A DNA stretch of 64,000 bases from a virus (lineage: Duplodnaviria; Heunggongvirae; Uroviricota; Caudoviricetes): IMG/VR virus record IMGVR_UViG_3300046499_000850. One strand, given 5' to 3'. Every line of letters starts with the position of its first letter. Position 1 is the stretch's first letter. Position numbers and translations under genes: made by a program. The notes below the pieces were generated by a model that was not told where the DNA came from, did not search any database, and was given only the letters and a program-made list of their open reading frames with translations. Of this stretch, positions 10,322 to 49,159 are shown one piece after another.

Positions 10322-10760
10322 TCAACAACAATACACCATTGACGTGTACGAACCGGTCGAGCGCTTTCGCCAATACCACGTACACTACGCGAACCCGGCT
10401 GTCCCGGCACCGTTGCAAGAAGATTACATCAAGATGATGGTCGAACAAATGATCGCCCACTTCGATGTAGAGAATGTAGCGGTGCAGATGTTTGTGGCAC
10501 ACTACACCCAACTCATCACCGACCCAACAGTCTCCCCGCGTTTCAAGTACCATCCGCTCAACTTCTTGCGGCAGATGAGTAATGAAGAGTACCAGCATTA
10601 TGTCTACTGCTTGTACGGGTTTGCAGAAGACATGTTCAAACTCTTCCAATCGCACCGGCTGTATACCAGCAACGGATTTTTGATCGCAGGGTATGAGAAC
10701 CTGATCCAGGATACGCTCTACCTTGTCATTCGTCCGGAGGTACCCGATGTCTTTCATTGA
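10314..10760 (+). CDS. hypothetical protein (148 aa)
   Basis: ATG 10314 (MPNQQQY) overlaps the upstream stop. Confidence 0.65.
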   Translation: MPNQQQYTIDVYEPVERFRQYHVHYANPAVPAPLQEDYIKMMVEQMIAHFDVENVAVQMFVAHYTQLITDPTVSPRFKYHPLNFLRQMSNEEYQHYVYCLYGFAEDMFKLFQSHRLYTSNGFLIAGYENLIQDTLYLVIRPEVPDVFH

Positions 10761-11247
10761 TGACCGCAGTAACTTCAAACCAGAACCCCTGTACGACGGC
10801 AACTACTATTTAGTCGATTGCTTGGACCCCATCGCTGAATTTCTACAAGTGCCCGAATCTGTCCGCATGCACATGGCCTCGGAAAGCAACGAGTGTAGTG
10901 GGTACGATATGGTGGACGTCGAACTGACGGAAGTCGTGGAGAATCTGACGTTCGGTAATCTTAGTAGCGCATTAGAGCGTCACACGGAAGAACTTCTTGA
11001 CGAAGGGTTGGATTACCTGCGTCACGAAGCCAAAGAACTGGGGATTCCTGAAGAGGATCTACCCGTGCACAATAGTGCCATCCAACGGGCACATGCCGAT
11101 GCGGTAATGCGCCTAGGAGACCAGATGGCTAAGATCCTCAAGCAATTCGGCTTCTACGATGGCCATGGTCACTTGACGGTGGATTACCACGGATTACTTC
11201 CCAACGGTTTGGTGGTGTTTCGTAAGAGCGAACGTGGCTTTAATTGA
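10747..11247 (+). CDS. hypothetical acidic protein (166 aa)
   Basis: GGAGG RBS before ATG 10747 (MSFIDD). Confidence 0.7.
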   Translation: MSFIDDRSNFKPEPLYDGNYYLVDCLDPIAEFLQVPESVRMHMASESNECSGYDMVDVELTEVVENLTFGNLSSALERHTEELLDEGLDYLRHEAKELGIPEEDLPVHNSAIQRAHADAVMRLGDQMAKILKQFGFYDGHGHLTVDYHGLLPNGLVVFRKSERGFN

Positions 11248-11255
11248 TACCATTG

Positions 11256-11259
11256 TATG
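11256..11259 (+). promoter_or_regulatory. candidate phiKZ-type late promoter (TATG) at the 5' end of the putative ncRNA
   Basis: TATG directly after the 11247 stop; phiKZ non-virion RNAP late promoters have a TATG consensus at the start site; a 4-mer alone is weak evidence. Confidence 0.3.
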
Positions 11260-11640
11260 TAACGATATCACCCCAACGTAACTCACCGTGTCGCGTTGAG
11301 GGGAGAAGGTGTGACCAGGGAACTACAACAGAGGTAACTTCGGGAGAACTCACCTGCTGCGGCGGGGTTGGGCGATGGTCACGAACGGTACGGGTAGCGA
11401 GGACTACCAAGCTGTCATGAGGGATTTTCGGTCGAGCGTTACCGCGCGATTATCCGAGTGTGCAACCGCCAGAGGACTTGTTCTAAGAATAGGTTCTGTG
11501 GTGGGTGCATAGGGTTCATGTCTCTGTGTGCTTCTTCTTTCGCGGTGTGGGTTAGCCGGGTTTGTTGAGTTTTGTGCATGAATGCTGATTTCCTTAGTTT
11601 GACTTCCGCTCAGGTGCCTTCGGGCATCTGAGCCTTTTTT
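11259..11640 (+). ncRNA. putative ~380 nt structured non-coding RNA
   Basis: ORF-free, G/U-rich; helices visible by eye: CCCCAACG/CGTTG-A-GGG, GTGACC/GGTCAC, GGTAG/CTACC, CGGTA/TACCG, long imperfect stem ~11460-11510, TTCATG/CATGAA; ends in a UUCG terminator. Confidence 0.55.
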
Positions 11641-11648
11641 ATGCCGTC
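11608..11648 (+). terminator. strong intrinsic terminator + TATGCCGTC
   Basis: GCTCAGGTGCC-TTCG-GGCATCTGAGC-CTTTTTT-ATGCCGTC. Confidence 0.85.
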
Positions 11649-11708
11649 ACTTCTTTTTTTTTTGGTTAATTGTTATGAAGCGTTCGTTTCTATTAACCTG
11701 AAAGAGAC

Positions 11709-13184
11709 ATGATGAGAAAATTTTCCTATAAAGCGCCGGGAGTGCAAGCTTCTGTACCGGTACAGCTCTCCGTCGAAGAGGAAGCCATCGCAATCGATGA
11801 GAGCAACCAAACAGAACACGAGATCGAAGAGGAATCGGCGGACATCGATCAACTCGGCGACATTATCGTGACCATGGGTGACGTCCAAACCGTGGTCAGC
11901 AACACGCCGGAAATCCAACCAATCGACCAAGCCTTGGTGTCGGCGGTGGCTGATATGGCGGTGGCGGGCACAGACGCGAACCCAGAAGAACTGGTAACCG
12001 ATGTGCTGCCGAATAATGGCGTGAGCGCAGAAGGTTTCATCGATACGGTTTCCGCCAAACTCAAAGAGATCTGGAAGAAGATCAAAGAGCTGATTTCCAA
12101 GGCGTGGGAGAACATCAAACAGTTCTTCGGCTTTAACAAAACCAAACTCCAGGAAGCTGAGAAGAAGCTGGAGAAGGCAAAAGAGCAGTACGCTGAAGTC
12201 CAAAAAGCGCTCGAAGAAGACCCGGTCATCCAAGCTTACGTGGAACGCGATGGTATCACGCGAGCAGGTGACCACGTCATCACGAAACAGCAAGTTGAGG
12301 AGGCTAAAGCACGTCAAGAGCCCCAACAGCCGCCCGAAGCCAAGAAACCCAAACAGCCGCGTCCACCCCGTCGTATCGATTTCTGGGGCACGGCCGGCAA
12401 TCTCTCGATTGACGGCAAACTCGTCGAGCCGGAAAAGCTGGCGGGCGAAATCCGTCGTCTGACCGACGCTGTAGAGAAAGGTGTCTCGAAGATGCACGCC
12501 GGGTGGCCACAACTGTACGACAATGTCAAGCACAGTGCTGAATCCATGCACCGCTCGCTGAATGGCCAGCAATCGCAAGAAACCTACGACAGTTTCATGA
12601 AAACCTACAAAGAAGGCGGCGCCAAACAGAGTCAGATCTACGACAAGATCGTCCAATACGGCGGCTTCCAGCGAGAAGGTTCGGAAAAACACATGTTGGC
12701 TGACTTCGCGTTGCTCTACACATCGAAAGATTCGCATAGCAGTAACTGGAACGATTTCGATCTGTGGGTGGATATGGCCGGCAACGGCTACAACAATGTC
12801 CGCGCTGATGGCATTCGCGAAATCCCGCTCGACAATCTGCCGGAAGTGTTCGCTGCAGTCGATGCTGCTTTCGACGTCATTCGGAAGCTGGAGAAGGACA
12901 TGGGCTCCGACATGTCGATGAATAGTCACCGGAAGGCTGTTGAAGATGCGATGAATCGCCTGAGTGAATCCAAGCCCACCGCCCAAGACATCAAGAACGA
13001 ACCTGATGCACTGAAAGGTCTCAGCATGAGCGTGCTCACGGGCGCTGTGCAACAGATGGGTTTCTCGGTGTTCAACATGGCCAAGATCGGTCAAGCCATG
13101 GCCAAGGCCACGCTGGTGCTGACCAAGGTGGCTGATACCGCGTGCATGTACGCTGAACGTTCGCTCCGCCCGGCTTCGGAGTAA
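11709..13184 (+). CDS. phiKZ-like internal head (inner body/ejection-type) protein, 491 aa
   Basis: Acidic propeptide, SAE-G protease-type site, then amphipathic KLKEIWKKIKELISKAWENIKQFF; N-terminus paralogous to 61504..62916. Confidence 0.65.
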   Translation: MMRKFSYKAPGVQASVPVQLSVEEEAIAIDESNQTEHEIEEESADIDQLGDIIVTMGDVQTVVSNTPEIQPIDQALVSAVADMAVAGTDANPEELVTDVLPNNGVSAEGFIDTVSAKLKEIWKKIKELISKAWENIKQFFGFNKTKLQEAEKKLEKAKEQYAEVQKALEEDPVIQAYVERDGITRAGDHVITKQQVEEAKARQEPQQPPEAKKPKQPRPPRRIDFWGTAGNLSIDGKLVEPEKLAGEIRRLTDAVEKGVSKMHAGWPQLYDNVKHSAESMHRSLNGQQSQETYDSFMKTYKEGGAKQSQIYDKIVQYGGFQREGSEKHMLADFALLYTSKDSHSSNWNDFDLWVDMAGNGYNNVRADGIREIPLDNLPEVFAAVDAAFDVIRKLEKDMGSDMSMNSHRKAVEDAMNRLSESKPTAQDIKNEPDALKGLSMSVLTGAVQQMGFSVFNMAKIGQAMAKATLVLTKVADTACMYAERSLRPASE

Positions 13185-13194
13185 GGGCACAGAT

Positions 13195-13232
13195 CTCCCG
13201 CTACCCTTCGGGGTAGCGGGAGCTATGACGTC
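13195..13232. terminator. bidirectional palindromic terminator between convergent genes
   Basis: CTCCCGCTACCC-TTCG-GGGTAGCGGGAG + CTATGACGTC. Confidence 0.75.
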
Positions 13233-13588
13233 TATTTCTTTTTTGGCCATTCCGGTAAGGGAACAGTCTTGCCTGCCAGATGGTGCGGGCTATCCGTGCA
13301 GTACTCGATGTTGCCTTCCCGCAGGAAGTAGTGGCAACTCGTGTAGTTCACTGGATGAACACGTTCTTCTGGGGTGCGTGGGATGTTGGTCATCTTGCGC
13401 ATCGACGGGTTGAACGTGGGTTTTTGGTAATCGTGGTTGAAGACCCACCCCACCGTAGTGCCTGTCACTGCGAATTGGTGAATATCGTCGCAGGCTGGGC
13501 ACAGGTGGTAGTAGTACCAACACCGGTTATGGTCATTGAAAAAGCGCCGCAGGTATGGACCTGCTTGTTCCATGTCTTCAAACAACAT
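13232..13588 (-). CDS. Cys/His-rich putative metal-binding protein (DUF6527-like)
   Basis: CPACDDIH...W.FN.D..KPTFNPS...SCHYF...G.IEY..D..H.LAGKTV.LP pattern, recalled as DUF6527. Confidence 0.55.
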   Translation of the reverse strand: MLFEDMEQAGPYLRRFFNDHNRCWYYYHLCPACDDIHQFAVTGTTVGWVFNHDYQKPTFNPSMRKMTNIPRTPEERVHPVNYTSCHYFLREGNIEYCTDSPHHLAGKTVPLPEWPKKK

Positions 13589-13607: not shown

Positions 13608-14084
13608 TCACCAGCGCAGATAGACCGGCAGACTTTCCTGACTGACGGTCGCTTTCTCCTTTACATACCAATGGCCTGGATACCCTTCGTAATCTTTCCG
13701 TTTGGATTTGACAAACCCCAAACTGGTAAAGAGTGCGATGGACTTGGTATTGCCGTCTTCAATCCAAGACAAGGCATGCGAATAGCGATCGAAGTATTCC
13801 TTCAACACTTTTCCCATGATCCCCTTGCCTTGGTGTTTCGGTACGACGAAACAGGCGCCGCATCGCCAGTACCGTTGGTTACCCCACATTTGCGACTTCG
13901 GACAATAGAAGCCGACAGGCTCTTCACCCAACAGAATCACCACCACCGTGGGCTTTTGCGGTACCGTCTCATGTTCATTTGGACTCAAGTAGCGGTCTTG
14001 CGACGCTTGGCTGAGGACGTCCTGAAAGAGACGGGTTTGGTGACTGGTGAGTTTACTTAACTCCCGGGTCTTGATCTGGTCCAT
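13608..14084 (-). CDS. GNAT-family acetyltransferase
   Basis: Motif A FVVPKHQGKGIMGKVL; motif B NTKSIALFTSLGF. Confidence 0.8.
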   Translation of the reverse strand: MDQIKTRELSKLTSHQTRLFQDVLSQASQDRYLSPNEHETVPQKPTVVVILLGEEPVGFYCPKSQMWGNQRYWRCGACFVVPKHQGKGIMGKVLKEYFDRYSHALSWIEDGNTKSIALFTSLGFVKSKRKDYEGYPGHWYVKEKATVSQESLPVYLRW

Positions 14085-48085: not shown

Positions 48086-49159
48086 TTAGCCAGGCACGCC
48101 GATGTTCGCACCCAGCAATGTACCCACCCAACTCACGCCGCCGTCGTAGGTGCGGAACTCGTATTCGTTCACCGCGTTGGCCAGTGTCGAGCGACCCGGT
48201 TCGATCTTGTTCGACCACATCACCGAGGCAGGGAACAGGAGTTTCCGGCCAGCGACGGCGTCGTTACGTACCAGCATGCTGAACTTGATAGCATCCCCCG
48301 CAGCCAACCCGGTGATTTTCGAGACATCGAATTTCAGCGTGGTGTCGCTATTCAAGTTCAGCGTAAACATGTTGCTCAGCGACAGATCCAGTGTCGTGGA
48401 CGACGAGGTAGCTGCGGTCGGTTTGATGCGATCACGGGTATTGGCTTGACGGTACAGGAAGCTTTGGAGAACGAGCGGCCCCGTCACCGTACCGCCCGCA
48501 ACATTCAGCGGCGTATAACCAAGCGCGTCCGTGATCGACTTGGTGTTACTGCGTAGCGCCATGATCAGGTTGAGCGTGATCTGGAGTTCAGCCATCTTGG
48601 CGTTGACGTAATCGTACAACCCTTTGGCGCCCGAGGTGCTACCCAGCAGAATAGCATCTCGCACCCGGTCGAGCGAAGCGGTTAAGAATTCAAAGCCGTA
48701 CACGTCGCCTGCATCGTGCAAGTGCGGGGCCGGATTGTAACCGTCGGGTTTACCGATGAGGTTGTCGAATTCGATCGGACGACCGTCGAGGCCGAGACGC
48801 TGCACGAGTTGCACGATCGCGTCGTAACTGTAGCTGTATTCACCGCCCAGCATCTGCGCATCAAACAACACATTCGGGCCGCAGCTCGCATCGGTGATGA
48901 CGATGATCTGGTGGATTTCCCGACCGGTCTGTTCGGTCGGTAGGGTGTACAGCACACCTGGGTAGTAATCCACACCCCGAACGAGTGTCCGATTGGTAGC
49001 GGCATCGCGCACCACAACCGAATCGCTGAAGAAAGCCCCGTAGCGCGGCACAAACAAACGGATGTTCGTGCTAGCGAGTTGATGGGTTTCGTCAGTTACG
49101 CGGTTGCTGGCTGCCGCACCAGTCAGGTCGAGGGGAAATTTGACTGGAACTAAAGACAT
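48086..49159 (-). CDS. tail fibre / virion structural protein (357 aa)
   Basis: N-terminal FPLDLTG..NR phiKZ-type structural motif; C-terminal beta domain (LDLS..F.L..W....P.RST) shared with 54584..55819. Confidence 0.7.
   Translation of the reverse strand: MSLVPVKFPLDLTGAAASNRVTDETHQLASTNIRLFVPRYGAFFSDSVVVRDAATNRTLVRGVDYYPGVLYTLPTEQTGREIHQIIVITDASCGPNVLFDAQMLGGEYSYSYDAIVQLVQRLGLDGRPIEFDNLIGKPDGYNPAPHLHDAGDVYGFEFLTASLDRVRDAILLGSTSGAKGLYDYVNAKMAELQITLNLIMALRSNTKSITDALGYTPLNVAGGTVTGPLVLQSFLYRQANTRDRIKPTAATSSSTTLDLSLSNMFTLNLNSDTTLKFDVSKITGLAAGDAIKFSMLVRNDAVAGRKLLFPASVMWSNKIEPGRSTLANAVNEYEFRTYDGGVSWVGTLLGANIGVPG

Follow-up and report, generated by a model that had tools for sequence, protein, structure and literature searches.

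A probable gene for a structured non-coding RNA with a helix 62-like hairpin in uncultured phiKZ-like jumbo phages

The virus record IMGVR_UViG_3300046499_000850, a DNA stretch of 64,000 nucleotides (nt) that is analyzed here at its full length and called the window, probably contains the gene of a stand-alone, multi-domain structured non-coding RNA (ncRNA) at positions 11259–11640 on the + strand. The joint reading that we favor, and consider probable as a whole, is that this RNA is a scaffold acting in trans and that a hairpin within it, which resembles the apex of helix 62 (H62) of 23S ribosomal RNA (rRNA), is a docking module. The RNA gene family is previously undescribed: it is new to Rfam and is absent from the nearest cultured phages tested. 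An earlier note on this DNA had proposed a + strand structured ncRNA some 380 nt long. Pairing, covariation and boundary motifs bear out this proposal.

Fold, covariation and boundaries of the RNA

Relatives of the window were gathered from JGI, ENA, Logan and IMG/VR by exact-protein look-ups and by homology searches with both flanking proteins, and two DNA-pattern scans supplied further ones. The resulting family contains 10 distinct RNA sequences from approximately nine lineages, with 52–74% pairwise identity, plus two close pairs. All of the relatives are syntenic. A homologue of a 166-amino-acid (aa) protein is followed by a gap of 460–500 nt that is free of open reading frames (ORFs), and then by an internal-head-protein-like gene, whose identity varies among the relatives.

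The fold, which comprises helices P1–P9 and a terminator, was obtained with RNAalifold plus manual curation. In the whole RNA there are 81 base pairs in 11 helices, and 93.4% of the cells are canonical, compared with 36–46% when the partners are slid. Compensatory (double) changes occur in 32 of the 81 pairs, compared with 3–11 in the slid controls. The 5' core gives similar figures by the tool count, with 93.6% canonical cells versus 33–42% for slid partners. Both sides change in 11 of its 38 pairs (0–4 with slid partners), and its covariation score is reached by none of 500 shuffles. Covariation among relatives had been named as a test of the proposal, and on these counts compensatory change is strong. 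Across the pairs of the family the ratio of G·U to A·C is 106:12. Because G·U far exceeds A·C, the + strand is the RNA. Single-sequence folding has a z-score of only −1.8, and the structure is not evident from one sequence.

The RNA lies in a 461-nt gap between the 166-aa gene and the internal-head-protein gene. The region had been described as free of ORFs, and the gap holds no credible one: the longest are 58, 56, 46 and 45 aa. The lineages have no ORF in common by frame or position, and their longest ORFs are not on the same strand, in the same frame or at the same place. It had also been described as rich in G and U; the G+T content of 11256–11646 (+) is 59.5%, compared with 49.1% for the whole window.

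Both edges carry the motifs reported earlier, with a TATG at 11256–11259 on the 5' side and a UUCG-capped intrinsic terminator on the 3' side. The TATG forms part of a putative phiKZ-type late promoter at 11252–11261 (+; ATTGTATGTA), with a predicted start at G11259. In phiKZ the late promoters contain TATG and its G is the start site; the motif is necessary for a late promoter and is not sufficient (PMC4666361). TATG is invariant at the 5' edge in 10 of 10 family sequences and in L038, and the surrounding positions vary; the conserved motif reads TATGTA, or TATGGA in L047. The promoter motif suggests that this would be a late phage RNA (PMC4666361). The intrinsic terminator (11608–11640, +) has an 11-bp stem at 11608–11633 with a UUCG loop and a tract of six U at 11635–11640. 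Nine of its 11 stem pairs vary across the family yet stay paired, with up to five pair types. The predicted transcript of approximately 382 nt (11259–11640, +) therefore runs from promoter motif to terminator and contains the covariation-backed pairs.

This RNA does not correspond to a known class in the searches made. A search for tRNA and tmRNA found none. Rfam 15 gives zero matches for the whole window at the gathering threshold, and two matches of 15 bits, both at chance level, for 11000–11900 at E ≤ 10. The comparison with Rfam suggested in the earlier note thus recovered no known family, either at the gathering threshold or credibly at E ≤ 10.

All helices are on the + strand. The P1 hairpin (11271–11302) has 11 pairs and a conserved loop, ACUYACCGUGU, and its stem contains C-G/U-A, A-U/G-C/G-U and again C-G/U-A exchanges. 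The loop sequence UACCGU is complementary to ACGGUA at 11385–11390, and a pseudoknot between them is possible; both segments are invariant, which places the pairing beyond covariation testing. A multibranch domain follows at 11310–11383. In this domain P2 (11310–11316/11377–11383) encloses P3 (11326–11329/11367–11370), the H62-like hairpin and P4 (11353–11366). Changes on both sides occur in four of seven pairs in P2, two of four in P3 and three of five in P4.

The P5 hairpin (11385–11415) consists of ACGGU/GCUGU plus GGU/ACC and has a variable tip. All eight of its pairs are formed in 10 of 10 sequences, with one U-A/C-G exchange and with the G·U pairs kept. A CsrA-type sponge with GGA loops was considered and rejected: the GGA in the P5 tip loop is present in the window and L004 and is not conserved. 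P6 is a long-range helix between 11419–11424 (GAGGGA) and 11590–11595 (UUCCUU), with G-C/G-U and G-U/G-C/A-U exchanges and moderate support. The P7 hairpin (11427–11458) is formed by UUCGG and CCGAG with an inner GCG/CGC. It has 10 pairs with 99 of 100 cells paired, and the exchanges are C-G/U-A at 11437–11444 and U-G/U-A at 11427–11458.

P8 (11462–11508) is a long hypervariable hairpin with a conserved base and a lineage-specific upper stem. P9 (11509–11527) shows G-C/U-A/U-G and G-C/A-U exchanges, and it may extend in competition with the base of P8. The 3' domain (11528–11589) contains P10 (11543–11546/11555–11558), which is a lineage-variable hairpin. The P10 region forms a hairpin in every lineage and its sequence is different each time. 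The peripheral hairpins (P4, the P5 tip, P8 and P10) are constrained only to stay paired. The RNA core is more conserved in sequence than the neighboring proteins.

The constraint on P8 is most visible between two near-identical strains. L001, a 237-kb sequence from another rhizosphere sample, is 98.5% identical to the window over 7.5 kb, and the differences are patchy and mostly in third positions. The RNA gene has 24 differences, of which 20 are clustered in 37 nt (11467–11503), with a net change of +2 nt. Three others (11549, 11551 and 11555) are in the loop and the closing pair of P10. The upper stem of P8 is wholly rewritten between the two strains and pairing is retained. Since the rewrite keeps the pairing with a net change of +2 nt, coding is excluded and selection for RNA pairing is indicated. 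The fold energies of the window and L001 alleles are −32.5 and −35.4 kcal/mol on the + strand and −12 and −16.8 kcal/mol on the − strand. In every lineage P8 differs in sequence and length and is always a long hairpin. This arm may mark a specificity surface or determinant. Duplex folding of the swapped P8 allele against the second variable site, 11549–11555, was uninformative as to a pairing partner.

Outside the RNA gene, two tracts of divergence from L001 (13442–13731 and 15450–15981) have differences of approximately 10%, mostly in third positions, and lie beside kilobases with none. This pattern suggests mosaic recombination among co-occurring rhizosphere phage strains.

The H62-like hairpin

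The H62-like hairpin (11331–11351, +) has a GAG/CUC stem, an internal loop of GUAA opposite GAGAA, and a C(UUCG)G cap. The sequence GTAACTTCGGGAGAA is present at 11334–11348, closed by GAG (11331–11333) and CTC (11349–11351), with GGAACTA 8 nt upstream, all as first described. Its likeness to E. coli 23S rRNA, flanks included, is exactly as the earlier note gave it. The 15-mer is 23S 1687–1701 (K-12 rrlH), with GGAACTAGGCAAAATGGTGCC on its 5' side and GGCAC on its 3' side. The RNAalifold fold of this invariant segment, two mini-hairpins without covariation, was rejected. The H62 fold was substituted, which adds one compensatory pair in L046.

The hairpin is conserved in most homologues, as would be expected from the earlier note. 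The 21-mer GAGGUAACUUCGGGA-N-AACUC is kept in eight sequences: the window, L001, L004, L005, L006, L016, L029 and the partial sequence L038. Position N is G, A or U and is the sole free position, and there is no covarying column elsewhere. In L046 the stem changes from A-U to G-C, so that pairing is kept, and UAA becomes UAG. In the L030 group the loop is a variant, CCAAC...GGAUAAAC, in which GUAAC is replaced by CCAAC and there is an extra A. In L047 the hairpin is absent, and the whole three-way junction of P3, hairpin and P4 is replaced by one hairpin with a CUGCAA loop. This pattern of retention indicates that the H62-like hairpin is under selection. GGAACTA is not conserved in the family and is confined to the lineage of the window, and this upstream match is due to chance.

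The chance of the rRNA match had been put at about 0.002. This figure is right for a region of 400 nt, and it ignores the look-elsewhere effect. Between the 64-kb window and one rRNA (rrn) operon, 0.63 exact 15-mers are expected. The probability of a shared 7-mer such as GGAACTA in a flank of 40 nt is approximately 0.05 per flank. Elsewhere in the window, at 48538–48553, 16 nt inside a coding sequence (ACTTGGTGTTACTGCG) are identical to E. coli 23S rRNA; this is a chance match and calibrates rRNA look-alikes. The identity to rRNA alone is not significant. The hairpin is considered real because it is conserved across relatives, and not because of its rRNA identity. A covariance model of the RNA matches the E. 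coli rrn sequence only at model positions 24–44, which are the hairpin, with 13.5 bits. A blastn search against E. coli genomes gave no reportable match, the 15-mer being below significance in 28 Gb.

The same 21-mer, including the GAG/CUC stem, is H62 of archaeal large-subunit (LSU) rRNAs (L010, L012, L013 and L024, which are JGI metagenome or metatranscriptome contigs). The matches of a metagenome scan with the 21-mer are mostly archaeal LSU rRNAs. Because it recurs there, the hairpin is viewed as a universal module and not as a host-specific sequence. In betaproteobacterial 23S rRNA the same position N is also G, A or U, and the stem differs.

U11335–A11337 lie opposite G11344–N11346 and give the UAA/GAN signature, with exceptions in the L030 group (CAA) and L046 (UAG). 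The hairpin reads as a cUUCGg tetraloop stacked on a UAA/GAN-type, GNRA-like internal loop. The UAA/GAN loop is GNRA-like, with a cross-strand A stack and A-minor contacts, and rRNA, RNase P and introns all contain examples of it (PMC2615604, PMC12550061). A GNRA-like role in A-minor docking would explain the strong conservation of a peripheral hairpin.

Genome setting and distribution of the family

The genes near the RNA locus include members of PF12699 (the phiKZ internal-head-protein family) and PF20307 (a divergent DnaB helicase), and an SNF2 helicase. PF25620 is found on the major capsid protein of the relatives. The helicase is at most 50% identical to those of cultured phages, and its top matches are Burkholderia phage FLC9, Ralstonia phages RP12 and RP31, and Xanthomonas jumbo phages. 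Rhizosphere metagenome assemblies are the sole carriers of the window DNA. Based on the neighboring genes, the helicase relatives and these assemblies, the window is a piece of an uncultured phiKZ-like jumbo phage of the nucleus-forming type, with a genome of approximately 240–270 kb. Judged from the cultured relatives, the host class is likely Betaproteobacteria.

The conserved 166-aa gene (10747–11247, +; stop codon TGA at 11245–11247) always precedes the RNA gene. Its homologues, which have 37–60% identity, adjoin the RNA upstream in every lineage. The gene is treated as genomic context only. Searches of Pfam and PHROGs with the 166-aa protein gave no match. Its AlphaFold model, with a predicted local distance difference test score of 77, matches only uncharacterised jumbo-phage proteins and has no match in the PDB.

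The internal-head-protein gene (11709–13184, +), which matches PF12699 phiKZ_IP, is downstream of the RNA. It appears to have a separate promoter of the TATG type, a putative one at 11669–11679 (+; ATTGTTATGAA) with TATG at 11674–11677. TTATGA is kept 3' of the terminator in all lineages. Motifs of the form ATT-N-TATG-N-A occur in the window at 13672 (−), 17882 (−), 48059 (−) and 11669 (+), 30–80 nt before gene starts. Those before the BubE-domain, DnaB-like helicase and internal-head-protein genes are candidate phiKZ-type TATG promoters. A pair of genes kept in several relatives, for a PF20137 (BubE) protein (13232–13588, −) and a GNAT acetyltransferase (13608–14084, −), lies in the interval from the head-protein gene to the SNF2 helicase.

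The RNA is present once in the window and once in a complete 272-kb genome when searched with covariance model R1. The same model finds no copy in four cultured relatives (FLC9, RP12, RTH11 and SURPRISE13). In RP12, a stretch of 939 nt (L041 17829–18767, record positions 116136–117074) has no annotated gene and gives no match to model R1. Against 50,697 phage records, a blastn search of the gap with the "distant" setting and a tblastn search of both flanking proteins have no match. Scans of IMG/VR with protein patterns from both flanking proteins recover no relatives, and the spaced GGAACTA...15-mer pattern has zero matches in IMG/VR.

When genome collections were scanned for a degenerate core pattern, more than 120 matches arose by chance, and by covariance model only L046, L047 and L048 from IMG/VR are real. 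In a Lachnospiraceae metagenome-assembled genome, L052 (913–1055, −) has a weak covariance-model match of 19.7 bits and shares the core AACGGUGCGGG...CCAAGCUGU; it is probably an artefact of pattern selection. L022 is a chance or coding match and is unrelated. L002, a 10-kb Logan contig, contains the nearest full-length homologue of the head protein (38% identity). It has a different gene order and has neither the upstream gap nor the RNA gene. Thus either the RNA is missing from some fairly close relatives, or this genome has it at another place.

Competing explanations and significance

One alternative is that the conserved region acts in cis, either as a long structured 3' untranslated region that stabilizes the mRNA of the upstream operon or as a leader or attenuator for read-through into the head gene. 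The position of the RNA is consistent with this. The 166-aa gene stops (TGA at 11245–11247) directly before the region begins (TATG at 11256), an internal-head-protein-type gene follows directly in every lineage, and read-through from upstream is conceivable. However, an invariant TATG of the region's own marks exactly where conservation starts on the 5' side, the 3' end is a strong terminator that covaries and carries a U-tract, and the downstream gene is preceded, 3' of that terminator, by a separate conserved and putative TATG promoter. Approximately 380 nt, 11 helices and conserved junctions far exceed a stabilizing 3' hairpin, and the folds show no alternative anti-terminator pairing with the terminator. 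A cis-acting element is thus unlikely. It is highly improbable that the region is no RNA gene at all, that is, a small-protein gene or a DNA element such as an origin, a packaging site or a recombination hotspot. The copy in the window does contain ORFs of 45–58 aa, and the P8 region is a local hotspot of strain differences. However, no ORF is common to the lineages, the P8 allele swap shifts the length by 2 nt, and the substitutions compensate pairing and are not synonymous. The pairing also uses G·U, which would be A·C mismatches on the other strand and is irrelevant to duplex DNA, and P8 folds far better on the + strand (−32/−35 kcal/mol) than on the − strand (−12/−17 kcal/mol).

Two functional ideas had been offered for the H62 look-alike, reuse of a tertiary module and mimicry of rRNA, and the former fits best. 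In a functional mimic the hairpin would copy the apex of 23S H62 and dock on the free 30S subunit or on a factor that binds H62. It would thereby influence how the subunits join, or serve as a decoy for a host factor that targets the ribosome. The 15 of 15 nt identity to E. coli 23S 1687–1701 and the 21-nt identity to some archaeal LSU rRNAs are in its favor. So are the selection on the hairpin in most lineages and the coincidence of its free position with that of real rRNAs. H62 contributes to bridges B5 and B6 with helix 44 (h44) of 16S rRNA (PMC3082907). But bridge B6 is made by G1702–C1704 (PMC3082907), and these positions, GGC, are CUC in the phage hairpin. The likeness to rRNA is confined to the apical 15–21 nt, GGAACTA is not conserved in the flank, and the 23S rRNA of the likely host class has a different stem. 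The L030 group and L046 alter the loop, and L047 lacks the hairpin. The decoy idea therefore finds little support, and a functional mimic is rather improbable. A more specific version, a ribosome-directed effector whose H62-apex copy would dock on 30S h44 and tune subunit joining or shield the 30S subunit, with P8 as a second surface for specificity or self-assembly, is more doubtful still. Module reuse is preferred because of the UAA/GAN signature, the free position shared with 23S rRNA and the replacement of the junction in L047.

Under the favored reading of a trans-acting scaffold with a docking module, an RNA of approximately 380–410 nt would be present as a single copy per genome in one clade of uncultured phiKZ-like jumbo phages from soil and the rhizosphere. 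It would be transcribed by the phage non-virion RNA polymerase from the TATG late promoter and released at its own terminator. The conserved core (P1, P5, P6, P7 and the junctions) would carry the function, and it is probably a scaffold that binds protein or RNA in trans late in infection. The H62 look-alike, a peripheral hairpin, most likely makes a tertiary or intermolecular contact by A-minor docking. Such a module would have been reached independently in rRNA, and would not be an rRNA copy that deceives a ribosomal partner.

Several points weigh against this reading. The fold of 11528–11589 and the boundary between the P8 base and P9 are uncertain. With 10 distinct sequences the family is small, which limits statistical power, and because all members are syntenic relatives, gene adjacency carries little information. 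By structure comparison the fold of the 166-aa protein is of no recognisable RNA-binding type. RNA sequencing runs, from leaf-litter metatranscriptomes, share only approximately 2 of 37 words with the gene, and the full-length matches are all DNA assemblies. The family is known from uncultured phages only. The scaffold role is suggested by the pattern of conservation, and the sequence signature is what points to H62 itself as a UAA/GAN site. The order in which loop and tetraloop are stacked is the same as in H62, which is beyond what the two modules alone require. The loop of the hairpin also departs from the 3 × 3 consensus, as described below.

The RNA can be compared with four known systems. 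The phage hairpin and H62 of 23S/LSU rRNA (E. coli 1682–1706) have in common a Watson–Crick stem, a GUAA/GANAA internal loop, a C(UUCG)G cap and the same free position. Unlike H62, the phage hairpin sits in a three-way junction of a 380-nt RNA, where nothing around it resembles domain IV. It does not keep the stem nucleotides of bridge B6, and two lineages have it in altered form and one lacks it. The UAA/GAN motif (Lee, Gutell & Russell 2006; PMC2615604, PMC12550061) is similar in having 5'-UAA-3' opposite 5'-GAN-3', with N free, beside a Watson–Crick pair. It differs in that the phage loop, assigned by its sequence signature, has an extra G opposite AA before the GAG/CUC stem, compared with the 3 × 3 consensus ccUAAg/uGAagg.

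GOLLD, ROOL, OLE and raiA are likewise long, multi-helix RNAs that are supported by covariation and have no assigned function, and many GOLLD and ROOL copies are also phage-borne. The phage RNA is smaller (approximately 380 nt), has no Rfam match and is not beside tRNAs. It is found in a head-gene module behind a phiKZ-type late motif, in one uncultured chimallivirus-like clade. The small RNAs in the transcriptomes of phiKZ and 201phi2-1 (PMC8244752, PMC11512511) are also non-coding units of nucleus-forming jumbo phages, with phage RNA polymerase promoters and intrinsic terminators. Most of them are short or stem from untranslated regions, and the passages searched describe no multi-domain folds. 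There is no sequence relation to them by blastn of the 50,697 phage records or by the covariance model in the four cultured relatives.

The hairpin is a clean natural case of a universal rRNA module, a UUCG cap with a UAA/GAN-type loop, reused outside the ribosome. The 37-nt hairpin swap with pairing kept is a striking constraint on structure only, and it may mark a specificity determinant. As there is no cultured member, the present value of the family is as a defined target for synthesis, probing and cryo-electron microscopy. Work on nucleus-forming jumbo phages is intensive but concerns almost only their proteins. The findings suggest that this clade relies on an RNA machine or scaffold that has so far gone unsought.

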